A stretch of 64,000 nt of DNA from Macrostomum lignano (Eukaryota). The notes beneath the pieces are model-generated. The model did not search any database. It saw nothing but the letters and a program-made list of their open reading frames with translations, and was not told where the DNA came from. Of this stretch, positions 24,948-59,629 are shown one piece after another. Made by a program: the position numbers and the translations under genes. The stretch covers positions 1-64,000 of the forward strand of contig NIVC01001158.1 in the NCBI GenBank assembly GCA_002269645.1, read 5' to 3'. The first letter of the stretch is position 1. Every line of letters begins with the position of its first letter.

Positions 24948-24971
24948 TTTAGAATTTATTTTTTCAAAAAA

Positions 24972-25402: not shown

Positions 25403-25605
25403 TACCATAATCGATTTTAGCTAGCATGATTTAGCAAATTTTTAGCCACGTCTTAACTGAACTGCGCATAACCAAGACTCAGCAACCACTACCACCTCAA
25501 ACCCGCATTGGCTCTTGCGGGTGAGCTTATTGGCTAAGAGCTCAAACGCGAGCGGAAAACGTTTTTTTAAGTAAAGGCGGAAGCCGGCCAGCCTTTTTCA
25601 CTTAA

Positions 25606-28540: not shown

Positions 28541-28896
28541 AGTAGTATGTAAAAGTACGCTTCCAGACCCAGAGGCACCTATTAAACAGCACATTTGAAG
28601 GGCTAGAGAGGGGGACACGGGGGGGAATAAAAAAAACACATGTAAACACTAAACAGCACAATTAAACACAATTAAACACCCCCAATACCCCCAATAACCC
28701 CATTTAATCAAAAACACTATTAACACACCCAATCAAATCCTCACATCAGAAATCAAACCCCCATGTCCCCCCTCTAGCCCTTCAAATCCATTGTTTCAAT
28801 AGGATCTGATCTAGAAGCGTACTTTTACATACTACTACATCCAAACACACACTAACACTCTCTAACCGTCGCCAGCGCCGCAGGCGCAAAGGGTCT
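28541..28896 (+). repeat. Left TIR of Polinton B (~356 bp)
   Basis: The inner 210 bp match 47236-47446 in inverted orientation. The outer 145 bp are inferred from the AGTAGT start. Confidence 0.7.
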
Positions 28897-30340: not shown

Positions 30341-31561
30341 GTAATATAAAAATGGGCTCAGTTAATGATGAAAATCGTCACTACTAAGCAACGGTAGATC
30401 CGTCGATTTTGGAGGTGGGGTGGGTGTCAACCCTCCTCGCCTCTCATTGGCTGGCGCCCCGATCACTAGGTGATCGATACCCGTATCGATATCGGCGCTC
30501 GGCGCGCGCGCGCCGCAGGCGCGTGGCGCCAAGCGCCGCAGGCGCACCTACCGATATGTACCGATATGTATGCTCACCCTACCGACATGTACCCCGATAT
30601 GTACACCCTCCCGAGCCGCAGGCGCACCCTCCTGAGCCGCAGACGCCCATGCCGCAGGCGCCCTGAGTGTACACTCTCCCGAGCCAAAGGTACACTCTCC
30701 CCAGTACACTCTCCCGATATGTACACTCTCCACAGTACACTCTCCCGATATGTATGCATACACAGATATGTAGTCAACGATATTAGGCTAGTGAAAACTA
30801 CTTATAGTAGGTGAAATTGAGTATATTTACATAAAAATGTAGATAAAACATATTGGTAGGTGAATAATGACGCATATTACATATTAAAATGTACATATTG
30901 GAGCATATGAGCAGCAAAAACACACAATGTAGGTGCATATTTGACAGAAATAGACAAAGCAGGTACTGTAAGCACTACATAGGTGGTAATACACACAGTA
31001 TAAAGTAGGTTTACAAAGTGTACTTTCGATACATATCGGATTAATGTATAAAGCGGGTTTACAAGGCATGCATATATCAGAAGGTGTAGTTGTATAATAC
31101 AGGCGCGCATGTATAATCAGATTATAGGCAAACGCCCAGGTGCAATTTCAACAGACGCGTAAATAATGTCACACCGACTAAAGAGTAAATATTGTCTAAC
31201 CCGCAGGTGCATAAATATTAAACAAAAGCGGTTCGGGGAAATCCCAAAAGGGAGGTTTTAGCCGCCCGTTTTCGCCGCCCTAACCCTCTTATGGGTACAA
31301 TTGCGTTGAAAATATTTCAAGTCATTAGGTTGTAAGACCCTCCATATTTTAGGTGGGTGGACTCGAGCCCGGGGCCAGCCCATTACAGTTTTTTGGGCCG
31401 GCCCCTCTGCCAATTTCCTCCCTAGGTGCGAGCTATCAGAATTGGTCTTTTAACCCCCGTGTATACACACATAGAGGCCCCCAGCTAGCGTCCCATTCTA
31501 ACCTACCCAGTGTACAGTGTTGGGTTCCCCAAACCGCGTACAAAGAGAAATACCTTATCAG

Positions 31562-32518
31562 TCAATCTCCATACGCTCCCTCAGGGCTGTCTCGTACGCG
31601 GCCTCTTCCTCCACGCTCTCGAAGCAGTAGTCGGATGACTGGCAATGTGGAAATTATAACAGTCAATGTAGATAGAATATAGGCAAGGTATATGATTAGA
31701 TGAGTTGTGTATACAGTGTAATATCTAACCAAACCTAAATCCTCCTCCAGCCGCCACAGGCGTAGAGACGCTGTATAGCGCACCAACGAAAGGTGCTCCT
31801 CCCAGTTGGTAGACCGGATAGCAGTAGCTATCCGGACCGGATAGCAGACTGCAGGCTCATCCCACGCAGTCGGGCGCGCTCCCGGACCGGCCAGGTACGC
31901 CTCCGAGTCGGGGGCATACGAATTACGCCCTATTAGCCAATCCTGGTGTAGCGTCTCCGCCTCCAGCACCTCCCGCAGATCAGCCCCTCGGGCCACCAAA
32001 GTATCAAGAACCCGATTAAAGGCTCTGACAAAGGTGGCTTGGGAGGGCAGGCCGCCAGGGTGGCGAGACCTCAACCAGTCAATGTCCCCGCGGAAAAATG
32101 AGGCCACAATGCGAGGAAAGCGCTCACGAACCACGGCGATCTCCTCAGACATATCCTCGTCCTCATCGTCGAAGAGAAGGAGCGTAGAGGCTGATGATAT
32201 TGAGGCCCGGTGGGAGGTAGTTGAAGCAGAGGCGGCAGCGGCAGAGACGGGCGCAGTAGAGACAGAGGCGGCAGCAGCAGCAGGGGCGCCGTTCACAACC
32301 CCGCCGATAGCCAGCAGCGGGAGGTCAAAAACTTCAGATTCGGTGTCGCTATCATAGGACATGGCCCAAGCTAGATATTGATCAGCCTCCCAATTATCGG
32401 TTCCGTTGTTTTCAGTGCCTAGGGGAACTATGTGTTCAGGGATATCACCCTCGAGGCTGGTTAACTCTTCAGTCGGGCGATTATTATCCCAGAGGTTGGA
32501 TAGAGCTCGGCGGGCCAT
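31562..32518 (-). CDS. Orphan 318-aa acidic/Ala-rich protein (left arm)
   Basis: Open ATG ORF with translation identical to 38756-39712; no recognisable family. Confidence 0.6.
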   Translation of the reverse strand: MARRALSNLWDNNRPTEELTSLEGDIPEHIVPLGTENNGTDNWEADQYLAWAMSYDSDTESEVFDLPLLAIGGVVNGAPAAAAASVSTAPVSAAAASASTTSHRASISSASTLLLFDDEDEDMSEEIAVVRERFPRIVASFFRGDIDWLRSRHPGGLPSQATFVRAFNRVLDTLVARGADLREVLEAETLHQDWLIGRNSYAPDSEAYLAGPGARPTAWDEPAVCYPVRIATAIRSTNWEEHLSLVRYTASLRLWRLEEDLGLVRYYTVYTTHLIIYLAYILSTLTVIISTLPVIRLLLRERGGRGRVRDSPEGAYGD

Positions 32519-32629
32519 GTTGGAATCAACAGAGAGTAAAGTATTAGAGCTAGGATAGGTTCGACTCTCCAGAGAGGAAACACTAATTATATAGACGGAT
32601 CGAGTGAGGCGGTGCGAACCAATAGGAAA

Positions 32630-33163
32630 CTAGCAGTCCCAACCCTCGTTATACAGATTTTCCCAGGGCGGAGATTGGTAGGGTTTGAGACCCACAAGCT
32701 GAAGAACATCCTCCTCAGTCCTGGCTACCGGAGGCGTGTCTGTCTTGACTCGCTTGGCTGGAGGGGGTGCCTCAGGTGCCGGCTTGAAGAGCTTGTCCAA
32801 ACGGGCGGCAAACATCCGGCGCCACAGTTCAGGCGTGAATTCGATCGTGTAGCGCCAATTAAACTTTGGGTCCTGATTGAGCCAATTGCGCAGCAAACGG
32901 ATCCTCCCTCGCGAAGCTTCAACTGCCTTGAAATTGCCCAACAGGACCCGCTTGTTCACGTGAAGGCGGGCAGCAGCCTCCAGGTCAGGGCGCGCAGCTT
33001 CGAGCTTCTTCCACTCTGGCTCGCTCAAGTAGATTGCAGGGAAGCCGTCCTTCCACACTCCGGCCTCGTTGGTGTAGAGACGCCGAATTTCAATCAAGTT
33101 GTGTTCAGTTTCAAATGTGGGCTTCCGCGCCACAAAGTTTTCGTATAGAGAGATAGAAGACAT
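32630..33163 (-). CDS. Tandem PC4-like ssDNA-binding protein
   Basis: LIEIRRLYTNEAGVWKDGFPAIYLSEPEWKKLEAARPDLEAA aligns without gaps to the PC4/SUB1 core as I recall it ([42 protein letters not shown]). The second half repeats the pattern. Confidence 0.7.
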   Translation of the reverse strand: MSSISLYENFVARKPTFETEHNLIEIRRLYTNEAGVWKDGFPAIYLSEPEWKKLEAARPDLEAAARLHVNKRVLLGNFKAVEASRGRIRLLRNWLNQDPKFNWRYTIEFTPELWRRMFAARLDKLFKPAPEAPPPAKRVKTDTPPVARTEEDVLQLVGLKPYQSPPWENLYNEGWDC

Positions 33164-33404
33164 GATTTAGCAGCAGCAGCAGAGAGCTCTCTGACAGCCG
33201 TGCAGCGCCTTATATACCCCCGGATGGAGGGTGGGGTGGGTGATGATTTTGGGGGGTGATTTTTGATGATTTTGGTTGGTTTTTGGTGATTTATCCAATA
33301 ACAGGCGAGCTGAGCAGATTTTTTAGTACATATACAGACCCCCCAGAGCCAGGGTAGAGAGATAATCCTTCTCTCTCCGCTCTCTCACGCTCTCTGTTTG
33401 CAAA

Positions 33405-36400
33405 ATGGCTAAACGCAGCGCCACCGCAACTGCTTTCCTGGCTGACAAGAGGCAACGTCTTTATGGTAAGTTTTAATTAATTTCTGACCGTCTAGGCTAG
33501 ACTGTAGTTGCTAGGGTGGGGGGTACTGCGGCACGGGGTGAGCTGCTGCGACAGCTGCAGGGTCTGTGGGACCGCAGAGTAAACAACAAAGACTGTCACT
33601 GCTGCGACAGCTGCGGGGGTCTAGACTGGAGTTGCTAGGGTGGGGTGCAGATAAGAAATTGGCAGGGTCTGTAACAGAGAGTTGCAGGGGAGGGCTAGAC
33701 AAGTTTCAGCCGGGTTAGCAGCAGCAGCAGCTGCAGGGTCTGTGGGACAGCAGAGTAAACAAAGACTGGGGCCTCGGGTGGGGTGTTGTCTAGACAGGGA
33801 GGGGTGTGCGGCAGCTGATAAGAAATTGCTGCAAAAAACAGAGAGTTGCTAGGATGCTGCGGCAGAGTACTGATAAGAAATTGGCGTGGTCTGTAACAGA
33901 TAATCGTTGGGGCGGGCTAGACAAGTTTCAGCCGGGTGGGGGGCAGAGAGTTGCTGGGACTGTGTAGCGCGGGGGCAGACTGATAAGAAATTGGCAAGGG
34001 CTGTCTAGACAGGTTGCAGCTAGGTGCAGATAAGAAATTGCTGCAAAAAACAGAGAGTTGCTGTGGGAGGGGTGCTGCAGAGTAAACAACAAAGACTGGA
34101 ACTGCTGCGACAGAGGGTTGCTGGGGCCAGGAAAATGACAGATTCTTCTGGTTTTTTTTTATCTCCTTGTGTTTTTTCAGACGCGTTTGTCCCGCCAACA
34201 CAGCCGGAATCTGTTACCGGACCGGGTGAGTTATCCAGCCCCCCATTTCCCACACAGACCCGGGCTGACTCACACTCCCCCATTCCCCCCATGCAGGTTT
34301 TACGGCCCGGCTGGATAATCAGCGCGAGCTGCCCAAGTTTAGGGCAAAGGGCGTCGAGTATGTGGTGCGTATTACCAACACCGAAGATTTGCGGGAGCTG
34401 TTTGTCGACATGCTCGAAGTTTTCAAGCAAGATTTGGCAGGCGAGGATTTCATGGCTGCGAAATTCGAGAGCGACAATATGCTCAAAGCAGCCCATACTC
34501 CCCCGGTGCGTGCAGCCCGCATGACGGCTGAATTATTATTCAAGCACATTGACAAGATTGTGCAGTCGGATGCCACTGTATTGTCAGGCAACTTTTCTAT
34601 CCGCCTGCTAAAAGCCTGGGTACCTCGAGGTGGCTGCGCCCTCGAGAACAAACATGTAGAGGAGCGCCACGCCTTCTCCAAGCACTATGTCCGCATCACC
34701 AACTCGGACAAGAGATGCCTGCTGCGAGCGCTTGTTGTCGCATGCGCCTACCTGCAATTTGTGGTCAAGTCCATCACCGAGCGGCTGTGGCGCACGATCA
34801 AGGCCAATTCGCCCACGCAGACTAAGCTGGTGGCTGAGCTACAAATCGAAGCGGGCCTCTACACGGTAAGTTTATAGTATTTTCATGGATTACTAAAAGA
34901 ATTTTTACGATAAGGAATACTAAAAGATATATTTTCTGATAAGAATTTTTACGCAGTATCATGGAATACTAAAAGAACCATACTCTGATAAGAATTTTTA
35001 CGATAAGGAATACTAAAAGAATTTTACATAGTATCAGGGAATACTAAAAGAAATATTTTACCCCCACACAGACTCTTCAAACCGTCTCGCAGGCCGGTCC
35101 TTTCGGGGTGGATGCACTGTCCGAAGCGATCCGTGCCCTGAACCGGCTGCATCCAGGCCATGATTTCGGTGTACGAGTGTACCGGGCAGAGGAGGCCAAC
35201 AGGTGCATCTTCAACCTGCCTGGCACCGAGATTCTGCACCTGCACCTGATTGAGCAGCACTTTAATGTGGTTACAAAGCTGCCTGCGTTTTTCGGCTCCG
35301 ATCACTACTGCCCCAAGTGCGAGATGGCCTACGACTGCGCCAACGCCGAGCACAAGTGCGCTGATGCCTGCAGTACATGCAAGACTCCGGGCTCCAACTG
35401 CAAGCATAACCGCGCATGTGAGATGCCATGATTGCGGGCTAAATTGCTATAATGCTCAGTGCCTAGAAAATCACAAGCGCAAGAATAAGGCGGGCAGATC
35501 GCGCTGCGATTCAGTCCACGTTTGCGGCACGTGTGGTTATCTAGAAGAACTAAAAGTAGGCCAGCCCCCTGAGCATCAGTGCCGTTACGCAAAGTGTCCA
35601 GTCTGCAAGCAGTACGACGAAACGGCCACCCACGAGTGCTTTGTCACCCCGCCCAAAGCCAAAGAGTCTAGCGCCCCGTATGTTTACTATGATTTTGAGA
35701 CGTACGTGGACTCTGGCAAGCAGCACCGGGTACACTTGGTTACGGCTGCCACCTCCTGCGAGGCGTGTCCCAAACTCTTCCCCAGGCCCCGCTGCAGCGT
35801 GTGCGGGGGACTACACAGCTCAGCCAATTGCATTGCGGGACGCAATCTGGCGCTGGATTTTACGAGCTGTGTCTCGCACAATGACTGTGCCTGCGGGATG
35901 CGAGAGTTTGTATCTGTCGGGCCGCACTCTATCGATGCCTTTTACTGCTGGCTGACTAGTGTGTTCAAGCAGGGGGCAATTGCATTTGCGCACAATGGCT
36001 CTGCGTATGACGCATTCCTCCTGCTCGGCGCCCTACTCAACGGACTGGCCAAGAAGAAGCCCCAAGTGATCTTCCAGAACAGCAACCTAATGTACATGAA
36101 GTGCGACAAGATCACGTTCAAGGACAGCCTCAACTTTATCCCTATTGGTCTGGCGCAATTCCCAAAGGCGCTTGGTTTGGGCACACAACTGACCAAAGGA
36201 GATTTCCCGCACGTGTTCAATCAGCCTCAAAATTGGGGGTACGTAGGTCCCTACTGCTCAATTGATATGTACGGCGGGAAGAAGAATAAGCAGCACGACT
36301 CCATCGCCGACTGGCTGGCCAAGCAGGAGGGCAAAGTGTTTAATTTTAATAAGGAGTATCTGGACTATTGCCTGCAGGACACGCTAATTTTGCGGGAAGG

Positions 36401-37015
36401 CTGCCTGAAATATACCCGCCTGATTAAGGACATTTGCGGACTGGACGCATTTGTCCAATCCAACACCATTGCGGGCTTGGCCATGGCTGTATTCACCACC
36501 AAGTTTATGGAGCCCAACACTCTTGGGGTGATTTCCCGCCGGTCGGATGTACAGTCGCACAAGGCGCGGTGCTGGCTGGCACATTTGAATGCAACCGAGT
36601 TTGGCGGCCGGTTGCGGACAGCCGACTCTGGCGGCGAGGCTTTCGCCATGGGCCGTAAGGTGGACGGTTTCGACCCGGAGACCAGGACAGTGCTGCAGTT
36701 TCATGGCTGTTTCTTCCATGGCTGTCCCAAGTGCTTCCCCAACGGTGACGTGCTGCACCCGCTCAAGAACCAGCCAATGCGGGCAATTTATGAGGAGACT
36801 GAGCGCTTCACCCGGCTGCTCTCCACTGCATACAATGTACGTGTTCTGTGGGAGCACGACTATCAGGGCGAGGGAGCGCCAGTCCAGCAGCCTATACGCC
36901 TGGAGGAAGCCCTGTTTGGCGGCCGTACCGAGGCTTTTGTCCCGCACGCCGAGGCCACCGAGACTGTAGAGCTGCGCTATCGGGATGTGGTACACACTGT
37001 GGATGTGGTACACTT

Positions 37016-37049
<34 letters not shown>

Positions 37050-38038
37050 GACATGCGTTTGAGTTTATCTTATCCTCTAATTCTCTATTATCCTTATTAT
37101 ATTATATTATATTATCCTTATACTTATCCCTAGGTGTCGCTCTACCCGACTGTCAACAAGTTTGACAAGTACCCTGTCGGGCACCCGGTTCACCACCCCG
37201 TGCCTCATCTACTGGATGAGCAGCAGCTGGCCCGGTATTTTGGTATCGCTGAGGTGTCGATTCTGCCGCCAACCAATCTCCACATTCCGCTACTGCCCGC
37301 CAAGATTAGCAAGAAGCTGGTTTTCGGCCTCTGCCGCGTCTGCATGGAGACCCAGTGCAGCAGCGAGTGTACACACACTGACGCTGAGAGAATGCTCCGC
37401 GGCACGTGGTCGACCCCAGAGCTCCACAAGGCCCTGCAGTTGGGTTACAAGCTGCAGTCAGTTCATGCCCTGGCCTATTGGACCGAGACTCGCACGGGTT
37501 TGTTTGCAGATTATGTAAACACTTTTTTGAAGCTCAAAGCCGAGTCTAGCGGTTCGCCGGGGATGACTGAGGACGCCAAGGCTGCCTACATGGCCAGCTT
37601 TTTCGAGCGCGAAGGCCTCCGGCTTGAAAAGGTGGAAGAAAATCCCGGCCTGCGCCTTGTGGCCAAGATTTTTCTAAACTCGTAAGTTTTTCTACTTGCA
37701 GTGGGGCCGTGTTTTTCTACTTACAGTAGCCAGATATACAAAAATTTATTTTTCCCTGCAGGCTCTGGGGCAAATTCTGCCAGCGCGACGACCTGACCTC
37801 CACAGAGATTGTGGACAGCTACGAGGCGTGGCTGCAGCGCCTGACAGACCCCTCGATCAAGGTCAAGTCGTGCGAGCCAATTGGGGAGAGCTTTATGATG
37901 CTCGAGTACAAGCCCCGATTTGGCGGTGCTGGCGAACGGGCATTCAAGTACGCTAATGTACCTATTGGCGTTTTCACCACCTCCCACGCCCGGCTGCGAC
38001 TCTACGAGGCTCTGGAGGGTCTAGGAACCCGAGTCATT
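33405..38038 (+). pseudogene. Protein-primed DNA polymerase B (Polinton pPolB with Vsr-like insert), 6 exons, one frameshift, truncated before motif C
   Basis: Exons 33405-33465, 34181-34225, 34297-34865, 35072(or 35093)-36989, 37134-37681, 37762-38038. Motifs YDFET, AHNGSAYD, KGDFPHVFN, VDG...QFHGCFFHGCPKC, LFGGRTEAF, DV|VSLYP and KIFLNS|LWGKF are restored by GT-AG splicing. Frameshift near 35415. Confidence 0.93.
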
Positions 38039-38755
38039 CCGGGCCTCAATATCATCAGCCTCTACGCTCCTTCTCTTCGACGATGAGGACGAGGATATGT
38101 CTGAGGAGATCGCCGTGGTTCGTGAGCGCTTTCCTCGCATTGTGGCCTCATTTTTCCGCGGGGACATTGACTGGTTGAGGTCTCGCCACCCTGGCGGCCT
38201 GCCCTCCCAAGCCACCTTTGTCAGAGCCTTTAATCGGGTTCTTGATACTTTGGTGGCCCGAGGGGCTGATCTGCGGGAGGTGCTGGAGGCGGAGACGCTA
38301 CACCAGGCCTTCACGTGAACAAGCGGGTCCTGTTGGGCAATTTCAAGGCAGTTGAAGCTTCGCGAGGGAGGATCCGTTTGCTGCGCAATTGGCTCAATCA
38401 GGACCCAAAGTTTAATTGGCGCTACACGATCGAATTCACGCCTGAACTGTGGCGCAGGATGTTTGCCGCCCGTTTGGACAAGCTCTTCAAGCCGGCACCT
38501 GAGGCACCCCCTCCAGCCAAGCGAGTCAAGACAGACACGCCTCCGGTAGCCAGGACTGAGGAGGATGTTCTTCAGCTTGTGGGTCTCAAACCCTACCAAT
38601 CTCCGCCCTGGGAAAATCTGTATAACGAGGGTTGGGACTGCTAGTTTCCTATTGGTTCGCACCGCCTCACTCGATCCGTCTATATAATTAGTGTTTCCTC
38701 TCTGGAGAGTCGAACCTATCCTAGCTCTAATACTTTACTCTCTGTTGATTCCAAC

Positions 38756-39712
38756 ATGGCCCGCCGAGCTCTATCCAACCTCTGGGATAATAATCGCCCG
38801 ACTGAAGAGTTAACCAGCCTCGAGGGTGATATCCCTGAACACATAGTTCCCCTAGGCACTGAAAACAACGGAACCGATAATTGGGAGGCTGATCAATATC
38901 TAGCTTGGGCCATGTCCTATGATAGCGACACCGAATCTGAAGTTTTTGACCTCCCGCTGCTGGCTATCGGCGGGGTTGTGAACGGCGCCCCTGCTGCTGC
39001 TGCCGCCTCTGTCTCTACTGCGCCCGTCTCTGCCGCTGCCGCCTCTGCTTCAACTACCTCCCACCGGGCCTCAATATCATCAGCCTCTACGCTCCTTCTC
39101 TTCGACGATGAGGACGAGGATATGTCTGAGGAGATCGCCGTGGTTCGTGAGCGCTTTCCCCGCATTGTGGCCTCATTTTTCCGCGGGGACATTGACTGGT
39201 TGAGGTCTCGCCACCCTGGCGGCCTGCCCTCCCAAGCCACCTTTGTCAGAGCCTTTAATCGGGTTCTTGATACTTTGGTGGCCCGAGGGGCTGATCTGCG
39301 GGAGGTGCTGGAGGCGGAGACGCTACACCAGGATTGGCTAATAGGGCGTAATTCGTATGCCCCCGACTCGGAGGCGTACCTGGCCGGTCCGGGAGCGCGC
39401 CCGACTGCGTGGGATGAGCCTGCAGTCTGCTATCCGGTCCGGATAGCTACTGCTATCCGGTCTACCAACTGGGAGGAGCACCTTTCGTTGGTGCGCTATA
39501 CAGCGTCTCTACGCCTGTGGCGGCTGGAGGAGGATTTAGGTTTGGTTAGATATTACACTGTATACACAACTCATCTAATCATATACCTTGCCTATATTCT
39601 ATCTACATTGACTGTTATAATTTCCACATTGCCAGTCATCCGACTACTGCTTCGAGAGCGTGGAGGAAGAGGCCGCGTACGAGACAGCCCTGAGGGAGCG
39701 TATGGAGATTGA
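38756..39712 (+). CDS. Orphan 318-aa protein (right arm copy)
   Basis: Translation identical to 31562-32518. Confidence 0.6.
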   Translation: MARRALSNLWDNNRPTEELTSLEGDIPEHIVPLGTENNGTDNWEADQYLAWAMSYDSDTESEVFDLPLLAIGGVVNGAPAAAAASVSTAPVSAAAASASTTSHRASISSASTLLLFDDEDEDMSEEIAVVRERFPRIVASFFRGDIDWLRSRHPGGLPSQATFVRAFNRVLDTLVARGADLREVLEAETLHQDWLIGRNSYAPDSEAYLAGPGARPTAWDEPAVCYPVRIATAIRSTNWEEHLSLVRYTASLRLWRLEEDLGLVRYYTVYTTHLIIYLAYILSTLTVIISTLPVIRLLLRERGGRGRVRDSPEGAYGD

Positions 39713-40977
39713 CTGATAAGGTATTTCTCTTTGTACGCGGTTTGGGGAACCCAACACTGTACACTGGGTAGGTTAGAATGGGACGCTAGCTGGGGGGCCT
39801 CTATGTGTGTATACACGGGGGTTAAAAGACCAATTCTGATAGCTCGCACCTAGGGAGGAAATTGGCAGAGGGGCCGGCCCAAAAAACTGTAATGGGCTGG
39901 CCCCGGGCTCGAGTCCACCCACCTAAAATATGGAGGGTCTTACAACCTAATGACTTGAAATATTTTCAACGCAATTGTACCCATAAGAGGGTTAGGGCGG
40001 CGAAAACGGGCGGCTAAAACCTCCCTTTTGGGATTTCCCCGAACCGCTTTTGTTTAATATTTATGCACCTGCGGGTTAGACAATATTTACTCTTTAGTCG
40101 GTGTGACATTATTTACGCGTCTGTTGAAATTGCACCTGGGCGTTTGCCTATAATCTGATTATACATGCGCGCCTGTATTATACAACTACACCTTCTGATA
40201 TATGCATGCCTTGTAAACCCGCTTTATACATTAATCCGATATGTATCGAAAGTACACTTTGTAAACCTACTTTATACTGTGTGTATTACCACCTATGTAG
40301 TGCTTAGAGTACCTGCTTTGTCTATTTCTGTCAAATATGCACCTACATTGTGTGTTTTTGCTGCTCATATGCTCCAATATGTACATTTTAATATGTAATA
40401 TGCGTCATTATTCACCTACCAATATGTTTTATCTACATTTTTATGTAAATATACTCAATTTCACCTACTATAAGTAGTTTTCACTAGCCTAATATCGTTG
40501 ACTACATATCTGTGTATGCATACATATCGGGAGAGTGTACTGTGGAGAGTGTACATATCGGGAGAGTGTACTGGGGAGAGTGTACTGGGGAGAGTGTACC
40601 TTTGGCTCGGGAGAGTGTACACTCGGGGCGCCTGCGGCATGGGCGTCTGCGGCTCAGGAGGGTGCGCCTGCGGCTCGGGAGGGTGTACATATCGGGGTAC
40701 ATGTCGGTAGGGTGAGCATACATATCGGTACATATCGGTAGGTGCGCCTGCGGCGCTTGGCGCCACGCGCCTGCGGCGCGCGCGCGCCGAGCGCCGATAT
40801 CGATACGGGTATCTATCACCTAGTGATCGGGGCGCCAGCCAATGAGAGGCGAGGAGGGTTGACACCCACCCCACCTCCAAAATCGACGGATCTACCGTTG
40901 CTTAGTAGTATCGTCTTTATTTTATAGGAGAAATAGTAGACACCTTAAATTTAGATGATAACAAACATAGTCACTCA

Positions 40978-41960: not shown

Positions 41961-43205
41961 AATGGAAATATTTTAGCTCAAATCGACAACCCAGAACTTA
42001 GAGCTCAATTAATAGCTCAAATCAAAGCACAACGAATTGCCGATAGGGCGGAAATAGAAGCTAGAATTAGAGCAGAAAATGAAATCAATTTACAAACACA
42101 ATTAGATATTATCGAACAAACAGCATCACCACCAGCGAATGGTGCTGAAATAATAAATATTAATATTGATATGAATACAGATTATAAAGAATATTTTAAA
42201 CAAATGAAAGAAAAATTAAAGACCGTATTAGACGAATATACTATGAGACAAAATAACAAACGGCAGCCAGTTAGGTATAAAATTGAAATTGAAACAGAAT
42301 TTAAAAAACCAAATATGATAAATGCAATTTCAGAAATTGAAGTAATAAATACCTTTTCACAAGAATCATATAAGTCACTTTTATCAATGGGAACATATAC
42401 CAAACAATTTGATAATATCGAAGCAGAGTTTGATAAATGGATTGATAAGATGACAGAAAACGGATCAGGCTTCATTTTTGTTTCTTATAACTCAGCCACA
42501 GTAAAGATTGTTCCTATTGAAGTTCTTCGAGGACGATCACATATGGATCCAGGATTTACATCTCCCATGATCATAAATCCCAACAATGAAGATGATAAGT
42601 GTTTATTATGGTGTTTACTAATTCAAAAATATCACAAACAAGTAAAATGGCATGTAAATAAAATATATTATTAGAGATTATGTGGATGAAATAATAATGA
42701 AAGACATATCCTACCCAGTATCCATAGATGATATATATAAGATTGAAAAAATGAATGGGTTAAATATTAATGTATTTTCAATTGAACAGCCAAACGATTG
42801 GGTTAAAGCACACGATAAAGAATGATATAAAAAAAAGATGTTTTCTTATTAAGCCAGCAACTGATATAACAGCACCAGACCAAATCGATTTATTGTACAT
42901 ACAGCATGAAAACAATACACATTATATATACATAAAAGATATTTGTTCCTTATTAAGAACAAATGGAAATAGAATGCCAATATGTAGAAATTGTTTCACA
43001 TTTAAAAAGAATGAAAGTGCTCTTAAAAACCTAATTATTTACTAATGTTGTAATGCCCAATGAAAAAGAACAAATATTAAAGTTCCAACAACATTTTATG
43101 GCAATTAAAAAACCAATTGTAATATATGCTGATTTTGAAGCATCAAACATACCCCTCAAATGTCCTAAACAACAAGATACGGCTGAATGTACAAAAAATT
43201 AGCTC
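41961..43205 (+). pseudogene. Second pPolB type (Polinton B), N-terminal to Exo I only, frameshifted
   Basis: GSGFIF, INPNNEDDKCLLWCLL, YPVSIDDI.KIEKMN.L.INVF, IDLLYI...HYIYIKD, CRNCF, KKPIVIYADFEA; cut immediately afterwards. Confidence 0.85.
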
Positions 43206-43229
43206 AACAGCTCAACAACAACGGGAACT

Positions 43230-43761
43230 ATGTTTGTATTAAGGTAATTAATAAGAGCAGCGGTATCTGCGCCGGCTGCTGGTGCTATGGTAGGAAAATT
43301 TATTGCTCCACCATCTCCCTTATCGGGCATCCATCCAACATTATCACCAACCTGTTTTGATAAATAAGTATAATTTAAATGTTTAAGAACTCCATTAATC
43401 TCTGCGGGGTTTGTTGATGTCTCAACCTCAGCTCCGTTAATTCTTAGTTGCGCTTGGGAAAAACATTTATAAAACCAATCTTTCTCGATAACAATACCAG
43501 AACGATCGGCTATATCGCCGGCCGCAAGAGCTGTTCCGTCATTTCGTGTATATAAGCATCTAACACGGAAAATGCGTTTAGTTGCATTAGTATCGTATTA
43601 GTTGCACCAACATCAAAAGTTACCGTTCCGGTAGTAAAATTGTTTGAATTATCGCTTGTTGGTAGGGTATAATTTAAATCTTTTGCCCTGACCTCATTGA
43701 TATATTGCCGTGGTTTTTTGAAATAATACTTATCACTCCATCTGTTTTTTGTTTCAGCCAT
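43230..43761 (-). pseudogene. Double-jelly-roll major capsid protein, N-terminal part (frameshifted, truncated)
   Basis: After a frameshift: KDWFYKCFSQAQLRINGAEVETSTNPAEINGVLKHLNY...GWMPD, matching the Polinton MCP pattern F....L.I.G.E.E....P....G...W..D. Confidence 0.65.
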
Positions 43762-44497: not shown

Positions 44498-45129
44498 ATG
44501 GAAACTAAAAAGATCTGTAGTAGATGTAAAGAAGAGAATTTTTTGCTTGAGTTTAGATATAGAATAACCCAGAATCGATATGAAGGTAATTGCAAAGAAT
44601 GTGGGAAATTTTATCAAAAAGAATATTTGCTATCCTCGATATTATGCTGAAAATAAAGAAAAAATTATAGAGAAAGTTAATATATGCACAAAACAATAAA
44701 GAAAAAGTTAATCAATATAGAAAAACAAGATATAGTGAAGATGAAAATTTCAAACTTATTGTAAACACGCGAACTAGAATAAATAAACTATTAAAATCAA
44801 CTAATGGTCAAAAAGACAACCATACTATTTATTATCTTGGTTGCCCAATTGAATTCTTTAAAGATTGGTTAAATTTCACCAAACATTATTATTTGCCAAA
44901 AGATTATATTGGTGTTTTGCATGTGGATCATTTTATTCCTGCTTCATCTTTTGATTATCGCAATGAGGAACAAATTAAAAAGTCGGAACATTGGACAAAT
45001 AAAAGATACCTAGCTGCTATGGATAATAAAACTAAATTTGTTAAAAAACCAACAATTAAAGAATTTGCAAAACAATTAGTGTTAACTTGTATTTTTAAGG
45101 CTATTAAAAATGAGCCAACTTTTGTTTGA
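44498..45129 (+). pseudogene. HNH endonuclease of the NCLDV/PLV type with an N-terminal CxxC...CxxC module (frameshifted)
   Basis: METKKICSRCKE...NCKECGK; YLGCPIEFFKDWL; LHVDHFIPASSFD...QIKKSEHWTNKRYLAAMDNKTK. Confidence 0.75.
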
Positions 45130-45830
45130 AGGTGGATTTTTAGATGTTCAAAAAGGACTAACAGGCTTACCACCAATCTTTACTACTGGAAAATATACTG
45201 GGGAACTACACCTACCATCAATGAACTTCACAGGTTAACCCGTGGCCTGAGTGGTAGAAGCAAAGCTACTGCTAGTCACTATTTGTGGCGACACCTTCAA
45301 ATTGCGTGAAACCCGTCATACAGCTTCAAGTACCACTTCAATTGAGAAATCTTTTGAAGGAACAGAGGTAACTCCTCTTCCCAAAGGTAACAAGCTTGAA
45401 GACATGGTGACAATGCGCAGTCAAGCTCCTAAGTATAAAAGTATAAGGAGAAGGTTCAGAGAGCAGACGGAGGTGGGTGGTAATTTAACCGCTTAAGGTG
45501 TGCTCCAGCCTCTTTCGAAAGATTGAGGGCAAACTACCCGGGACTAGGCTGGATTTGAGATTAAATCCTGATGATACTCCAAAAGCTGATTCAATTCCCA
45601 TCAATGGTATTGATTGGTTAGCATATTATCATGACTTAGCATACAGAGATGCTGACAAGAATTCTCCTGAGGAAGCATAAGATTAAAGCATGAAGCCGAT
45701 AGAAAAATGATTGAAGGATTAGATAATTTACAGGGATTATCGGTAAGCCAGAGATTAACTCGGTGGATGGTTAAAAAGATCTTGCAATCTAAAGTGAAAT
45801 TTGGTTTGGGAATTAATTACAATCAACATG
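45110..45830 (+). pseudogene. PLA2-domain gene of Polinton B, split by a group I intron (exon 1 45110-45235; exon 2 from 45537)
   Basis: Spliced reading MSQLLFEGGFLDVQKGLTGLPPIFTTGKYTGELHLPSMNFTG|PGTRLDLRLNPDDTPKADSIPINGIDWLAYYHDLAY; frameshift near 45678, then KHEADRKMIEGL...ILQSKVKFGLG. Confidence 0.9.
45236..45536 (+). ncRNA. Group I self-splicing intron, subgroup IC1-like, 301 nt, no internal ORF
   Basis: Helices found by eye: P1 CAGGU/GCCUG with U-G at the 5' splice site; P2; P2.1; P3 CACCUUC/GGAGGUG; P4 UGCGUG/UGCGCA; P5abc with A-rich bulge and GAAA loop; P6; P7 G(A)GAGCA/UGCUCC; P8; P9; P9.0; P10. Confidence 0.93.
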
Positions 45831-45859
45831 AAAATAATTGTGTAGAGTGTTTGTTATTA

Positions 45860-46697
45860 AGTGGTGGTGGGTTAAGTTCTGATGAGGCAAAGGTTCTTCA
45901 CAAAGAATACCGAAAGCCTAAATTTTATAGAAAAATCATTAACTTCAAAAAGAATGAAATTTGATATGCTGATTTAATGTCAATGCCGAACGAAAGAGGA
46001 TATAAATATATCTTAACCATACTGGATAGTTATATCTGGATATATCTTACTCGAAATGCGTGGCTGTTCCTTTGAAATCCAAAAAAGGAGAGGAGATTGC
46101 CGCTGCTTTTAAAAATCTTAGAGAAAAAAGTGATAGGTTGTGTGTTGATGAAGGAAAAGAATTTTACAATCATCATATGTATAAATTGTATCATTTTGAA
46201 AAAGGAAAAGAAAGGAAAAAAGACGCGAATGGTGAGTATATTAATAAAATTTATTCTATTTATGGAGAAAGCAAAAACGCACTGATTGAAAGAGTTAATC
46301 GAACTTTAGGTAAGAAATTGTGGTTTCAGTTTAGTATTAATGGTAACCAAAAGTGGGTAAAAATATTACCAGACGTTGTGAAAGATTATAATAATTCATA
46401 TCATTCAGCTATAAAAATGACTCCTCAACAAGCTATAACACTCCTGAAAATGTTAAAGTCACTTTTGGAGAGTTTGAAAAAAAGAAAACTAAAGGTTTTA
46501 AAGTTGGTAATTCTGTTTATATTTATAAATGGAAAGATAAGTTTGAAAAGGGAAGAAAAGGATATTGGAAGATAAGTGAGAAATTTACCATCAGTAAAGT
46601 TTTAAATACAAATCCTACAACCTATATCATTGCTGATAAAGATGGTGAAGAAATATTGGGTTCCTTTTATGAGAACCAGATAATATCTGCGAACTAA
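45860..46697 (+). pseudogene. Polinton rve integrase (stops/frameshifts), initially in frame with the PLA2 C-terminus
   Basis: LHKEYRKPKFYRK, *YADLMSM...GYKYILTILDSY, AVPLKSKKGEEI, CVDEGKEFYN, KNALIERVNRTL, YNNSYHSAIKMTP, FKVG...FEKG...GSFYE. Confidence 0.9.
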
Positions 46698-47235: not shown

Positions 47236-47446
47236 AGACCCTTTGCGCCTGCGGCGCTGGCGACGGGTTAGAGAGTGTTTGTGTGTGTTTGGATGTAGTA
47301 GTATGTAAAAGTACGCTTCTAGATCAGATCCTATTGAAACAATGGATTTGAAGGGCTAGAGGGGGGACATGGGGGTTTGATTTCTGATGTGTGGATTTGA
47401 TTGGGTGTGTTAATAGTGTTTTTGATTAAATGGGGTTATTGGGGTA
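47236..47446 (-). repeat. Visible part of the right TIR of Polinton B
   Basis: Reverse complement of 28686-28896; runs into Ns. Confidence 0.85.
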
Positions 47447-48144
47447 NNNNNNNNNNNNNNNNNNNNNNNNNNNNNNNNNNNNNNNNNNNNNNNNNNNNNN
47501 NNNNNNNNNNNNNNNNNNNNNNNNNNNNNNNNNNNNNNNNNNNNNNNNNNNNNNNNNNNNNNNNNNNNNNNNNNNNNNNNNNNNNNNNNNNNNNNNNNNN
47601 NNNNNNNNNNNNNNNNNNNNNNNNNNNNNNNNNNNNNNNNNNNNNNNNNNNNNNNNNNNNNNNNNNNNNNNNNNNNNNNNNNNNNNNNNNNNNNNNNNNN
47701 NNNNNNNNNNNNNNNNNNNNNNNNNNNNNNNNNNNNNNNNNNNNNNNNNNNNNNNNNNNNNNNNNNNNNNNNNNNNNNNNNNNNNNNNNNNNNNNNNNNN
47801 NNNNNNNNNNNNNNNNNNNNNNNNNNNNNNNNNNNNNNNNNNNNNNNNNNNNNNNNNNNNNNNNNNNNNNNNNNNNNNNNNNNNNNNNNNNNNNNNNNNN
47901 NNNNNNNNNNNNNNNNNNNNNNNNNNNNNNNNNNNNNNNNNNNNNNNNNNNNNNNNNNNNNNNNNNNNNNNNNNNNNNNNNNNNNNNNNNNNNNNNNNNN
48001 NNNNNNNNNNNNNNNNNNNNNNNNNNNNNNNNNNNNNNNNNNNNNNNNNNNNNNNNNNNNNNNNNNNNNNNNNNNNNNNNNNNNNNNNNNNNNNNNNNNN
48101 NNNNNNNNNNNNNNNNNNNNNNNNNNNNNNNNNNNNNNNNNNNN
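47447..48144. other. Assembly gap (~700 N)
   Basis: Run of N. Confidence 1.
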
Positions 48145-48425
48145 CACCTGCACCTGAGGTGGCTGCACCTGCACCTGAGGTGGCTGCACCTGCACCTGAG
48201 GTGGCTGCACCTGCACCTGAGGTGGCTGCACCTGCACCTGAGGTGGCTGCACCTGCACCTGAGGTGGCTGCACCTGCACCTGAGGTGGCTGCACCTGCAC
48301 CTGAGGTGGCTGCACCTGCACCTGAGGTGGCTGCACCTGCACCTGAGGTGGCTGCACCTGCACCTGAGGTGGCTGCACCTGCACCTGAGGTGGCTGCACC
48401 TGCACCTGAGGTGGCTGCACCTGCG
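48145..48425. repeat. 21-bp coding tandem repeat (QVQPPQV on the minus strand)
   Basis: CACCTGCACCTGAGGTGGCTG, ~13 copies, abutting the gap. Confidence 0.95.
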
Positions 48426-51400
48426 GCTGTGACGCCTGCACTTGTGGTGGCGGTTGAGACTGCGCCACGCGCATCTGGTTTCCAGCATCTTCAGACACTA
48501 TTTGCTGGTGCATCGCTACCTGCATCTGCTGAGGCTGGGTGCGATTTCTGCTGCTGTTGCAGCTGCTTGATAGGGGATTCTAGCTTTGGGACAACTTGCT
48601 GATTCTGAGCAGGCAGCTGCTGTGACGGTTGCACATGCTGTTCCTGTAGACGAACCTGCTGTTGTTGAGGATGCATTTGTTGCTTCTGAGGACGAATCTG
48701 CTGTTGCTGCTGAGGCTGCATCTGCTGTTGCTGCTGAGGCTGCATCTGCTGTTGCTGAGGCTGCATCTGCTGTTGCTGCTGAGGCTGCATCTGCTGTTGC
48801 TGAGGACGAATCTGCTGTTGCTGCTGAGGCTGCATCTGCTGTTGCTGAGGCTGCATCTGCTGTTGCTGCTGAGGCTGCATCTGCTGTTGCTGAGGACGAA
48901 TCTGCTGTTGCTGCTGAGGCTGCATCTGCTGTTGCTGCTGAGGCTGCATCTGCTGTTGCTGAGGACAAATCTGCTGTTGCTGCTGAGGACGAATCTGCTG
49001 TTGCTGCTGAGGACGAATCTGCTGTTGCTGCTGAGGCTGCATCTGCTGTTGCTGAGGCTGCATCTGCTGTTGCTGCTGAGGACGAATCTGCTGTTGCTGC
49101 TGAGGACGAATCTGCTGTTGCTGAGGCTGCATCTGCTGTTGCTGAGGCTGCATCTGCTGTTGCTGCTGAGGACGAATCTGCTGTTGCTGCTGAGGCTGCA
49201 TCTGCTGCTGCTGAGGCTGCATCTGCTGTTGCTGCTGAGGACGAATCTGCTGTTGCTGCTGAGGACGAATCTGCTGTTGCTGCTGAGGACGAATCTGCTG
49301 TTGCTGAGGCTGCATCTGCTGTTGCCGCTGAGGACGAATCTGTTGTTGCTGCTGAGGCTGCATCTGCTGTTGCTGAGGCTGCATCTGCTGTTGCTGAGGC
49401 TGCATCTGCTGTTGCTGCTGAGGCTGCATCTGCTGTTGCTGAGGACGAATCTGCTGTTGCTGCTGAGGCTGCATCTGCTGTTGCTGAGGCTGCATCTGCT
49501 GTTGCTGAGGCTGCATCTGCTGTTGCTGCTGAGGCTGCATCTGCTGTTGCTGAGGACGAATCTGCTGTTGCTGCTGAGGCTGCATCTGCTGCTTCTGAGG
49601 CTGCTGCTGAGGCTGTTGCTGAGGCTGCTGCTGATGCTGTTGCTGAGGCTGCTGCTGAAGCTGTTGCTGATGCTGCGGAACCTGATTCTGCTGAGGTAGC
49701 CCGTGCTGCTGGGATTCCAACATTCCTGCGTAATGCCCTCCTCGCAGGTTGGCCTGCACGTTGGTGTACATCAGCTCCGCTTGCTCAACCTCGGGATCAC
49801 GGAACAGCCTCGCCTTCAGATCGGACTCTGTGAAATGAAGTCGCCAGTAGTTGAACGCCAGCTTCTGCGATTAAAATATAAAAAGATGAAACATTTTCGT
49901 ACCCCGTTCAACGCGCAGAATGTCGGTCACTGACGGCTTCGGTCTATTGATTTTGCTCTCCAGTTCCTCCGATCGTTCCACCTTGCGCAGCTCCAATAGT
50001 CGCTTGAAGTTGGACGCCTCTGTTAATAGGAAAACGAGGTTCTTTGCACTTTTTTGCAATTTGAGAGACGAACAAACACAGCTTTTCAGACGTATGATCA
50101 TGACAAGCACATCTGCTTTTATGCAAGGGCTAAAACTTCTATGAATATCTTGCCAAAGTAAACCTGGGTCGGATTCCGTTAGAGCTTGTCATGCCATTCA
50201 CGGCCACCGGAGGGCCATAACCCCAAGTGGTAATGTCAGGGCCGCTATGCACCCATGATGTGAGACAAACTAACTCACTCAGTAGACACTCATTTTCATG
50301 CATTTCAGGACAGAGACTGAACAATATGATCCGAGCAACATCTCCCTGCAAGGCTGCTCACCCGGTTCCACGTGCTTCAGCTCAGGCCTAAAGTCTTCAA
50401 CGGGCATGACTGTCAGAGTGGCTTCGGCGAAGATCTGGCCGAGAGGGTTGCGAGCGAGCACGCGCAACCGAGTGTCGCCGATGTCCTTGCAGCGCAGGAT
50501 CTCAAAGTAGTTGATCGAGCCATCGTGGTACACCTTGCAGTTCGAAGTCTGGAAGTTATTAAAATATTCGTTTCCGAGTGAATGTGAAGAACAAACGAAA
50601 AATGGTAAAATCTGGTAGATTTATGCGCTTGAAAAGCAGCAACATAAGCAGTGCACAGTCACTTCAATTAAACAATAAGTTTTGCACCTGTTCTTACAGT
50701 AATTCTATACATTTTACATTTACAACATTGAGTACTATAAACGAAATTCAATTTGGGTAAGCAACTCTAACACTGAAGCACACGACTATTTGGGCGTTCT
50801 ACAATTCATATCTGTGATAATAGTGCGAAAATACAATAAAGTCACCACTTAGCAAAGCGCTTTTCGCAGCTGATGGGGCAGGATGCATAATTAACAACAA
50901 AATTTGTCTAAATTTTCTTCCGTCGAACGCCTCTATTGAAGCTGAAGCTAGATTTTTTACAAAGCCGTGCGCTCCTTTTGCCGCTGCGACGCAAAAAAAT
51001 CAATAGTTTATACTGACTACTAGCAGTAGATTACTCGAATGTGCACACTAATGCAATATAAGCAGCCTTACATCGCTTGTGTCAATGTTATTGCTGACAC
51101 TTTCAGTTTCATTAACCTCGTCCGAGTCCTGTTAGGAAAAGTGGAGCTTGACAAGTTGGAAATGTATTGTGTAAGTTTATATAAAAAAAATTGTTATTCA
51201 CACGAGGTAAAATTTAAAAGCAAAGGGAAACAGAAAAGTAATTAACACGACTGTGCAATCAAATTGAGCTGATGGACTTCATCAACGGCACAACCGAGTT
51301 CAGTGACATCAAAATTGTGACAGTTTCTATCACGTCAAGACAATTGCATTGAAATCGAGACAGTTGCATAAAAATCAAGACAGTTGCACCAATGTCAAGA

Positions 51401-56790: not shown

Positions 56791-57829
56791 TTAGACCAGC
56801 TTGTCTACAGGTATACCCCGGGCAACACCCCTCCCTCAATCAGTTTCTGCCTTTCCTTTACAAAGTCTACCTGAACTGCACAGACAGCCACGGCAGCCAC
56901 ATCCAGCGCCAAGGCACCATCAGCTTGATGTCATCGATCCTCGAAGCTCTGGACGCAGACTGGTGGGGGTTGGTTGGTGTTCGTTGCTTCCCTCTTCCCC
57001 CGCTGCTGGCTTTCCCTGCCCCATCCCTCAGAGCGAAGAACAGAGCCGGATTTCACTATAGACAGGACGCAACCAAACGCGGTTAGCGAAAGGTCGATCT
57101 ATTGCCTGATCCTGCATGGCTGTTCTCCCTGTCCAGGCTAAAGTTCAGCGCCCGCGGAACACACGCGCAGCACACGACCCCACGTACACCACCCCCAACC
57201 CGCCGACCGCCGATATCCCATTCAAACCTCTGGGATGGTCAGAACGGAAAGGCCAAGCGTAACTCCGCCTAAAAGCAGAGATGTTGCAGATCCTTACGCG
57301 CAGCTCCAGCTCGCATTTGAACTTTGCATTCTTTTATTCTTGAACCGATGGCTTTTCTTGTCTATCAGGTGCTGCTTTGCCTCTTGGGGACATCGTAAGG
57401 TTTTGTATGGCAAAAGTTCTCTGAAAAAATGATATTTTCGACTAGAAGGGCGAAAAGTTTCAACACCTTGTCCATAGAAATTTGAGTTTTGACCATGCAT
57501 AATATAATACGCTCGTACTTGTACTAATATAATATATAATAGATTACACCTATTGTTGGGCAGACGTGCAACCGACAGCTCAGCCGCAGCTATTGCGCGG
57601 CGCATCTGAAGACTGCAATAAGGGATGCAGAATCAAGTGCATTGGAGCCCCCTACAGACTAAGAAGGTTAGTTAACAATATCCTACCTCTATAGCTCTAG
57701 CACTCCGAGATGTGATTCACAATGTGGAATCTATGATTCACGATGTGGGATCTGTTGTTCACAACGTAGAATCTTTCTTTCACAACGTGGCAGTTGTGAT
57801 TCCCGATGTAGCATTTGTGATTAACTGTT

Positions 57830-59025: not shown

Positions 59026-59629
59026 GGATCTAGGTTTCACACTTTATTCACGTAAAAATTTTGCTTAATAGCATATTTGTTATGATTAAAAATTTTCACA
59101 AACGTCTTGCAATAAAAAATTTTTTTTTGCTTTCGTCAATCCTGAACAAGAAATTTTGATTGACAATCAGAAATTTCATTTCTGGTAACCTGTCTTCCCG
59201 GAAATTAACGAATTTCTGTGTCCGGAAGAGAGCCAGGAGGTCGGACCTCGGCTTGCAGTGTTGCCAGGAACAAAGGAGCAAAAATCTGACAACTTGCATC
59301 GGAACAGCTGATAGAAAATTTCATAGTCTCATTCCGGGAAACCATCACGGTTTGCGTGTGAAAGTGACTAGATAAGGCAAAACTGCCAGTCTGTCGGTTA
59401 CACCTGTCAACTTCAATTAATCAAACTGAGGATGGTAACTTTCCGCTTTGGTTATTCCTGTACCACTTTCTCTCTCCTCTCTCTCCGAGCGGTTGCCTGC
59501 AATTAGCCAAGCAAGCATTGCTCAGGTAAAAAGTAGATAAAAGTTGCCTAGAGAGGGACAGCCTGGATGCTATCCACTTTTTGGTGGTGGGTACAATATA
59601 AAACTGAAGCTGCTCAAAAAAAATACTCC

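Follow-up and report, generated by a model that had tools for sequence, protein, structure and literature searches.

Group I introns interrupt the PLA2-integrase gene of Polinton-type elements in the Macrostomum lignano assembly

We analyzed a stretch of 64,000 nucleotides from Macrostomum lignano (assembly GCA_002269645.1, contig NIVC01001158.1, positions 1 to 64,000 of the forward strand), referred to here as the window, in which a gene of an integrated Polinton-type element is interrupted by a group I intron. The gene joins a PLA2 domain to an rve integrase, and the intron lies at the Gly|Pro boundary of the PLA2 calcium loop. Our analyses of the source genome (764 Mb, 5269 contigs) indicate that a mobile group I intron family has probably colonised this boundary in Polinton PLA2-integrase genes, where it would be spliced and spread by homing. 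An initial annotation of the window had described a complete IC1 intron in a PLA2 gene; the integrase function of the gene, the presence of three intron types at the site and the restriction-enzyme-like endonuclease had gone unnoticed. Below, family A denotes the intron without an open reading frame (ORF), to which the window copy belongs, and family B the enzyme-bearing sister intron at the same site.

The reading frame from the ATG at 45110 runs to ...LPSMNFTG, meets a stop codon at 45236 and reopens at 45537 as PGTRLDLRL...AYYHDLAY. A covariance search with RF00028 aligned positions 45227-45527 of the window with 48.4 bits (E 3.8e-11), and a gathering-level Rfam scan of the window returned no matches because this score falls just under the cut-off of 50. 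The helices were found where the initial annotation had placed them: P1 (45231-35/45245-49, its 5' strand being the last five nucleotides of exon 1, with a U.G pair at the 5' splice site), P3 (45292-98/45469-75), P4 (45303-08/45414-19), P5a-c with an A-rich bulge and a GAAA loop (45346-49), P2.1, P6/P6a, P8 and P9. P9.0 pairs 45507-08 with 45534-35 (64/67 cells paired), and position 45536 therefore occupies the terminal slot. Only eight nucleotides separate P9 from exon 2, leaving no space for P9.1 or P9.2. Thermodynamic folding of the window copy alone is weak evidence, with a z-score of -2.07 and 4 of 100 shuffles folding equally well. The window copy itself is a decayed passenger of family A, frameshifted and rearranged: the frame that resumes at 45537, as first described, is lost farther on, near 45675, 46063 and 46432, whereas around 382 codons are open in most sister copies.

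Searches of the source genome retrieved at least 40 copies of the intron at 91-100% identity (40 scored among 173 candidates), and all 30 copies fetched sit between the same two exons. When RF00028 was run on 18 family-A loci, scores of 55.6-72.1 bits placed 16 of them above the cut-off; the two not listed were L017 and the copy of the window. Copy counts in what follows refer to 34 distinct family-A copies, excluding L006, L081, L087 and L088 (boundaries unsure), L082 and L083 (no intron) and L056 (P1 unmatched by the pattern). Over 79 base pairs, 2646 of 2685 cells were paired in these copies, compared with a fraction of 0.39-0.47 for slid partners, a comparison that favours the real pairing as the reference structure was drawn from the window copy. 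Pairing was complete in P3 (238/238), P4 (204/204), P7 (204/204), P9 (204/204), P5a-c and P2.1, and nearly so in P8 (200/204) and P1 (167/170; 110/110 in family B); the GAAA loop of P5b was present in 34/34 copies and the A-rich bulge in 32/34. Minority pair types within family A comprised 23 one-sided changes that remain paired, 6 two-sided changes and 11 broken pairs. Paired and unpaired positions varied to a similar extent within family A (36/152 and 36/149, with two helices mis-set), and this test lent no support. The L068 group of family-A introns is longer, at 333 nt, with about 30 extra nucleotides.

An RF00028 search of the genome retrieved family B, for which all 28 scored matches exceeded the cut-off. 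In the 27 family-B copies for which both ends could be placed, the intron occupies the same site and measures 836-895 nt. Identity between family B and the window intron is 81%, against 68% for exon 2. Of the 79 base pairs compared between the two families, 60 are the same, 11 show two-sided compensatory change, 3 one-sided change and 5 are broken. In P7, three consecutive pairs are changed on both strands with pairing kept, and the guanosine-site G-C pair is present in 34/34 family-A and 20/22 family-B copies; the initial annotation had read the unusual P7 as a compensatory change. A third intron type uses the same 5' site and has P2, P2.1 and P5abc that nearly match those of family A. Its P3-P4-P6-P7 core differs, however, and its 3' end is displaced, so that it looks like a recombinant ribozyme. 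Residue 3 is the starting point of this type's exon-2 match, as it is for around 24 of the 150 exon-2 matches (judged by eye; two were fetched). From these comparisons we regard it as practically certain that 45236-45536 is a real group I intron.

The last base of the intron is A in 28 of the 34 distinct family-A copies, including that of the window, and G in the other 6, whereas all 22 distinct family-B copies end in G. Terminal-G copies of family A are scattered over the tree rather than forming one clade, and P7 is alike in terminal-A and terminal-G copies save for one G.U pair in one copy. Terminal A is therefore a trait of the family and not, as had been suggested, a lesion of the window copy. 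The terminal-A intron Diderma L2066 self-splices in vitro (PMC3679873; this and the following papers are cited for the parts of their text available to us) and the terminal-A intron ND5-717 of corals is ligated in vivo at low efficiency (PMC6545197), so the lack of a terminal G does not bar membership of group I.

IC1 introns are characterized by P5abc and by P2 and P2.1, with P9.1, P9.2 and P13 as in Tetrahymena, although not every IC1 intron need have P9.1 and P9.2. The introns described here have the GAAA loop, the A-rich bulge, P5a-c, P2 and P2.1 and lack P9.1 and P9.2, and IC2 introns likewise have P5a-d (PMC11835236). The subgroup is IC-like, and the original assignment to IC1 is tentative.

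What the intron interrupts was clarified by two identical loci without the insert, L082 and L083, in which the exons are joined at exactly the ends equivalent to 45235|45537 in one frame of 423 aa; excision of 45236-45536 indeed restores the calcium-loop frame. The PLA2 domain of the encoded protein matches PF08398 (33.1 bits, cut-off 23.9), and its integrase part matches PF00665 (E 6.7e-7 in L082, under the cut-off of that family) and foamy-virus integrase chains (E 3e-5). Among 153 homologs of PLA2-integrase, most of the top ones have both domains and an uninterrupted G-P-G-T-type motif, and PF00665 was detected in top homologs. Because PLA2 and integrase form one protein, the intron divides the integrase gene of the element rather than the lone PLA2 gene initially described.

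The genome contains both intron-plus and intron-minus alleles of this gene. The insert is carried by 58 of 60 loci, in all 58 of which the exon frame contains 2-6 stops, and no stop-free GT-AG alternative in frame was found near the intron ends. Intron-less alleles with open frames of 423-463 aa exist, and split copies outnumber intact ones among 150 scored junction matches. The LPSMNF class of exon 1 was not encountered in any intron-less DNA allele. Of 36 distinct terminal-A stretches, 25 have open frames in both exons, and the HDxxY motif is retained in 21/22 terminal-A copies. The ratio of non-synonymous to synonymous differences (pN/pS) in terminal-A copies was 0.115 for exon 1 of the LPSMNF class (0.37 when two divergent exon-1 classes were pooled) and 0.07-0.09 where exon 2 encodes PLA2, with pS of 0.25-0.36 over these comparisons. 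Intron distance correlates with the distance of the adjacent exon 2 (Mantel r 0.51, p 0.001). Since both exons stay under purifying selection and the integrase would require their joining, we consider it quite likely that the intron is spliced out in the host animal. Short palindromic inserts were also seen at the PLA2 start codon in two RNA-guess and DNA runs.

Several observations weigh against this reading, and those that concern splicing are as follows. The majority of family-A copies have no terminal G; P10, for which the five of six pairs first reported hold in the window copy, is weak over the copies (139/203 cells paired); and the canonical 3' strand of the tetraloop receptor is present in just 2/34 family-A copies. 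At least 22 intron-less copies could provide the protein in trans, part of the purifying selection may have acted before the intron arrived, and the trees are obscured by recombination (Mantel r only 0.31-0.51). Contigs of two runs guessed to be RNA (X5, X9) span an unspliced boundary between intron and exon 2. When contigs from four runs, three of them guessed to be RNA and one of unknown type, were compared with L070:700-2700, no exon 1-exon 2 joint was listed, a result uninformative on splicing as contigs show presence only and the copies are polymorphic; no RNA run is on record among those that contain the stretch. Both splicing and cutting by the endonuclease are inferred rather than directly observed.

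The leading alternative is that the intron was imported but is silent, being spliced in a viral or protist setting and not in this animal. Intron-bearing Polintons would then be non-autonomous for PLA2-integrase, or would make integrase from a start codon within exon 2, and would depend on intron-less helpers for their movement. Such helpers are conceivable given the intron-less alleles with long open frames, and the prevalence of terminal A, the weak P10 and the unspliced boundary in presumed RNA would fit a silent intron. In an unspliced transcript, however, exon 1 and the PLA2-coding half of exon 2 would be useless, and both are nevertheless under purifying selection in terminal-A copies; compensatory change maintains the helices, and split copies are the more numerous class. 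We therefore regard a silent intron as unlikely.

Family B carries its ORF in the P2.1 loop, and in 16 of 27 copies this encodes at least 200 aa with the catalytic motif. The enzyme belongs to PF09553, the Eco47II family (30.1 bits, cut-off 25.9; 17/18 alignment members match), and its predicted model, with high pLDDT over residues 1-160, adopts a PD-(D/E)XK fold. The closest known structure is EcoO109I (E 6.1e-5; Z 9.6, root-mean-square deviation 4.0 over 160 aligned residues, the sole chain above Z 8), followed by AvaII (E 1.8e-3) and then by Ecl18kI and PspGI; a fold search of BFVD gave weak nuclease matches, the best with E 8e-4. At L035:1092-1778 the frame of the family-B enzyme continues for about 68 codons through the ribozyme core from P3 to P6, and homologs do likewise, in two different frames.

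In 17 of 60 family-A loci, exon 1 is directly preceded by a free-standing Eco47II-like gene, 64-68% identical to the family-B enzyme. A midpoint-rooted tree places these free copies with the family-B enzyme (support 95/87), within a set of intron-borne forms; escape of the free gene of family A from an intron is suggested by this grouping, though not proven. Over the same 60 loci (L001-L030, L059-L088) this upstream slot holds an HNH-like gene in 42, the Eco47II-like gene in 17 and neither in 1, and an HNH-like gene is found in the slot of the intron-less L082 too. The ORF in the slot of the window has an HVDH motif, from which we take it to be HNH-like; its nearest Atlas cluster with a family assignment is PF01844 at 0.89, a lead only. 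HNH-like slot copies are 57-85% identical to that of the window, while the flanks are around 90% identical. Judged from these sequences, the slot upstream of PLA2 is an exchangeable nuclease cassette.

The position of the intron relative to the presumed specificity of this enzyme points to a role in homing. Adjacent Gly and Pro codons always spell GGNCC, and the insertion point falls inside such a word at the Gly|Pro boundary. The site of Eco47II is GGNCC (PMC12376442), and EcoO109I and AvaII cut RG/GNCCY and G/GWCC, respectively (PMC7337904). At the junction, intron-less alleles read GGC|CC in 20 cases and GGT|CC in 2, with no GGA or GGG, as expected if a GGWCC cutter had removed or converted the rest, a spectrum that represents two lineages only. 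Of 16 words of this form, GGNCC is also the least frequent relative to expectation in each of the two Polinton families, at 0.12 and 0.14, although the loci are near-copies and amount to about two observations; in single loci, none seen against three expected is too sparse to count. On this basis we lean slightly towards homing at the junction as the function of the enzyme.

Other evidence weighs against a homing role. The free relatives of the enzyme, from 79 metagenome loci (L093-L171; around 30% identity), show no likeness to the intron, and their DNA is depleted of CCNGG (0.30 of expectation) and not of GGNCC (0.96). Ecl18kI and PspGI are among the fold matches, and the Pro-Gly codons with which exon 2 opens spell CCNGG, a site that the intron would leave exposed. 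The 20 GGC alleles derive from two lineages only, and C at the junction would also spoil the U.G pair of P1, which provides a second reading of the absence of the intron from GGC alleles. The free relatives adjoin convergent C5 methyltransferases (22/22 neighbours picked by motif, from 22 of the 79 loci) and apparently form a restriction-modification family; no partner methyltransferase was seen in the 3-kb Polinton loci, in which the neighbours are PLA2 exons.

These relatives raise the alternative that the intron splices while the endonuclease, recognizing CCNGG or a broad GGNCC site, acts as a restriction-type weapon on rival elements or viruses and finds a safe harbour in or beside the intron. 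The methyltransferase neighbours and CCNGG depletion of the free relatives are in line with such a weapon, as is the HNH-like occupant of the slot in most loci and in intron-less L082, and a five-base cutter would presumably be dangerous to an unprotected animal genome. Set against this, the closest clade of the enzyme is intron-borne in several data sets, the insertion splits exactly a GGNCC word, and it is this word that is rarest in both Polinton families. A weapon thus appears decidedly less probable than a homing enzyme.

According to the mobile-intron reading that we prefer, free guanosine bound at the G-C site of P7 would attack at the U.G pair of P1, and exon 1 would then attack after the terminal base, mostly A in family A, to yield the PLA2-integrase mRNA. 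Less firmly, the endonuclease may cut intron-less alleles at the GG-N-CC word over the insertion point, and repair from an intron-bearing copy would then spread the intron; the enzyme would act in cis in family B, while family A would rely on collaborative homing, in which a free-standing enzyme moves a neighbouring intron (PMC11296320). To spare the host, so short a site would presumably need flanking specificity or confinement to sites of viral replication.

The element and its surroundings are summarized in Table 1. The outer AT-rich element contains a nested GC-rich Polinton, whose repeat ends read ACTACT...AGTAGT, the reverse of the left end of the outer element. A PolB of the outer element is unconfirmed, a further point against the preferred reading: the fragments at 41961-43360 are PolB-like by eye with no family or homolog match, and that at 41961-42671 has no homolog among 853 candidates and no likeness to the nested PolB. 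Of capsid, ATPase and protease genes the window provided just a weak pX match (E 0.0028), the window copy being internally deleted, and the N gap conceals the target duplication of the outer element. The other PLA2 genes, near 525 and 25045, read YCGPL unbroken and are intron-free at the site, as first noted; they lie in two decayed copies of another Polinton family (47-902 and 24572-25403) with PLA2 and integrase on opposite strands, 81% alike and without the intron. The window also contains a mariner-type transposase (23214-24275), a DUF4371 ORF (17259-18233) and long tandem arrays (16445-17038, 48145-49710, 54131-54846 and 57711-59046).

Table 1. Features of the interrupted gene, its element and the related intron loci
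Feature	Position	Strand	Remarks
Exon 1, PLA2-integrase gene	45110..45235	+	42 codons, the last being the Gly codon of the calcium-loop motif
Group I intron, family A, without ORF	45236..45536	+	P1, P2, P2.1, P3-P9, P5abc, P9.0; last base A
P7	45459-65 with 45501-06 (45459..45506)	+	guanosine-site G-C pair kept
Exon 2, remaining PLA2 domain (HDxxY) and rve integrase	45537..46697	+	frameshifted in window copy
Free-standing nuclease slot	44671..45129	+	overlaps PLA2 start; HNH-like ORF in window
Left terminal inverted repeat, outer AT-rich element	28541..28896	.	begins AGTAGT
Right terminal inverted repeat	47236..47444	.	98.6% to 28689-28896; cut off by N gap 47447-48144
Nested GC-rich Polinton	30380..40909	.	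2.6-kb inverted repeats (99.2%), 6-bp target duplication
Protein-primed PolB (PF03175)	35265-37685		belongs to nested element
Third intron type	L293 (G000:C103:8610-9060), L298 (G000:C2097:55340-55760)		RF00028 33-34 bits on short loci

The placement of the element in an animal nuclear genome, proposed from the outset, agrees with the gene content of the assembly, in which we found 70 Wnt, 18 troponin and 3 MyoD-basic matches. With troponin and MyoD counted as bilaterian markers, the genome is that of a bilaterian; a mir-124 model gave no match, which is uninformative as no control matched either. Copies are spread over well above 100 contigs. On contig C67, 129 kb separate a family-B intron from a Wnt exon, and on C952 a split PLA2 exon 2 is found 23 kb away from Wnt. 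All 13 scored 18S matches were 1812-1813 nt long with 1779-1783 bits; from these near-equal lengths and scores, the scored rDNA copies are without an intron. The stretch occurs in 20 runs from 7 studies, all under one organism label. We conclude that the intron very probably lies in the animal nuclear genome. It is highly improbable that the elements come from a protist symbiont, a food organism or a free virus co-assembled with the animal: the published group I introns of Polinton-like viruses (PLVs) are all from protists (PMC12220804), look-alike cores occur in giant viruses and an N gap follows the element in the window, but copies on so many contigs, some with Wnt exons, the uniform 18S matches and single organism label, and the decay, frameshifts and nested insertion with target duplication typical of chromosomal copies speak for the animal chromosome. 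A chance structure or a spliceosomal intron, which the sub-threshold Rfam score of the window copy and its folding only modestly better than shuffles might have suggested, is refuted by sister copies and families up to 41 bits over the cut-off, by the compensatory pairs and by the lack of an in-frame GT-AG alternative.

Relatives of both enzyme and ribozyme were also found outside this genome. Of 17 enzyme homologs, 10 run at their end into a group I core by read-through (nine by script, P0005 by eye). P0022 and P0066 start with a read-through of the A-type P7 strand. One metagenome contig of the JGI (L092) contains the whole arrangement, with PLA2 exon 1, P1 with its U.G pair as in families A and B, the enzyme within the P2.1 loop, a core of 80.6 bits, a terminal G and a PLA2-integrase exon 2, the PLA2-integrase being 40% identical. 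A 22-nt group I core motif gave at least 121 matches in IMG/VR (L172-L292), many of them in giant-virus genomes, while one core-motif search of the same database gave none. The viral cores are around 70% alike to that of the window; 11 of 14 loci tested exceeded the RF00028 cut-off, several contigs have two or three introns, and flanking genes encode capsid (6/19) or RNA polymerase (5/19). Searches of IMG/VR gave no relative of PLA2-integrase and none of the enzyme, and neither a PLA2-integrase nor an Eco47II-like gene was present in any of the 121 viral loci. One locus (L184), on a contig without PLA2-integrase, has both the P7 variant and the J8/7 change of family A, alone among the parsed viral loci. 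The single IMG/VR match to the P1 motif (L299) was rejected as chance, having phage-like ORFs and no RF00028 match. These similarities suggest that the intron pool of giant viruses may be the source of the ribozyme, rDNA introns being outside the comparison.

Group I introns are already known from protist PLVs and giant viruses; new here are the host, the gene, the terminal base and the partner enzyme. Our literature search found no report of a group I intron from animal Polintons or of an intron-borne Eco47II-type enzyme, most subscription papers and the repeat databases being outside its coverage. The available parts of PMC8502044, PMC11131425, PMC3671162, PMC11296320, 10.1101/2023.08.22.554363 and 10.64898/2026.10.13.758929 (main text) likewise mention no such intron; in PMC8502044 the word 'intron' is used once, for a group II maturase-like gene of other viruses. 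It thus seems fairly likely that an intron in an animal Polinton is not yet in print. The initial annotation had known of no prior description, in line with our search for animal Polintons, whereas RF00028 introns have been published from PLVs of three protist groups only, in Paulinella, Desmodesmus and Rhodomonas (PMC12220804). Like those described here, the protist introns match RF00028, measure around 300-380 nt and lie in protein genes of Polinton-class viruses integrated into nuclear genomes; in contrast, the gene that they interrupt is unannotated, encodes 50 aa and precedes the capsid gene, and the sections cited identify no homing enzyme (PMC12220804). The present case differs in its bilaterian host, the PLA2-integrase gene, defined intron ends, intron-less alleles and a candidate enzyme.

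Chlorella viruses are said to be further giant viruses with group I introns. In Bodo saltans virus, as here, essential viral genes are split and enzyme-bearing and enzyme-less introns occur together; splicing was shown there by reverse-transcription PCR and trans-homing was proposed, but giant-virus introns have HNH or GIY-YIG enzymes and protist hosts (PMC5871332). The Tetrahymena-type IC1 introns of rDNA share P2, P2.1, P5abc, the A-rich bulge, the GAAA loop, the CCUAAG receptor strand, a GNRA L9, the U.G pair at the splice site and the G-C pair of P7 (PMC3679873). Unlike them, the introns described here lie in an mRNA gene, lack P9.1 and P9.2, are associated with a PD-(D/E)XK enzyme and have a variant P7 and mostly a terminal A. 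In the parts cited, a review limits nuclear group I introns to rRNA genes of microbes, with His-Cys enzymes (PMC3679873), and the only animal group I introns recorded by a survey of the whole of NT are those of placozoans, corals and sponges, for the most part mitochondrial and mostly IB4 (PMC11835236). Coral ND5-717 shares an animal host and the terminal A but is mitochondrial (PMC6545197). I-Ssp6803I and I-Bth0305I are PD-(D/E)XK homing endonucleases and, as here, restriction-fold enzymes with a group I intron, although prokaryotic and of other families; in the same source PF09553 appears among bacterial type II restriction families and is not given as intron-borne (PMC3424549). Adintoviruses and Polintons share the rve integrase, a parvovirus-like PLA2, terminal inverted repeats and copies in animal germlines, but adintoviral PLA2X joins PLA2 to pX, whereas PLA2 is here fused to the integrase (PMC8502044).

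Taken as a whole, the system may, tentatively, comprise working mobile ribozymes in a bilaterian nucleus, an integrase whose production depends on splicing, a terminal-A family with a rebuilt P7, a restriction enzyme recruited for homing because Gly-Pro codons spell its site, and, within one genome, stages with the enzyme inside and beside the intron together with resistant intron-less alleles. Why nuclei with a spliceosome exclude group I introns from mRNA genes is an old question, and a single bilaterian genome with intron-plus and intron-minus, terminal-A and terminal-G, and enzyme-bearing and enzyme-less alleles makes it testable. If the proposed reading is true, a family of restriction enzymes would join the homing endonucleases, Polintons would be a route for giant-virus introns into animal germlines, and compact ribozymes already fitted to the animal cell would be at hand.

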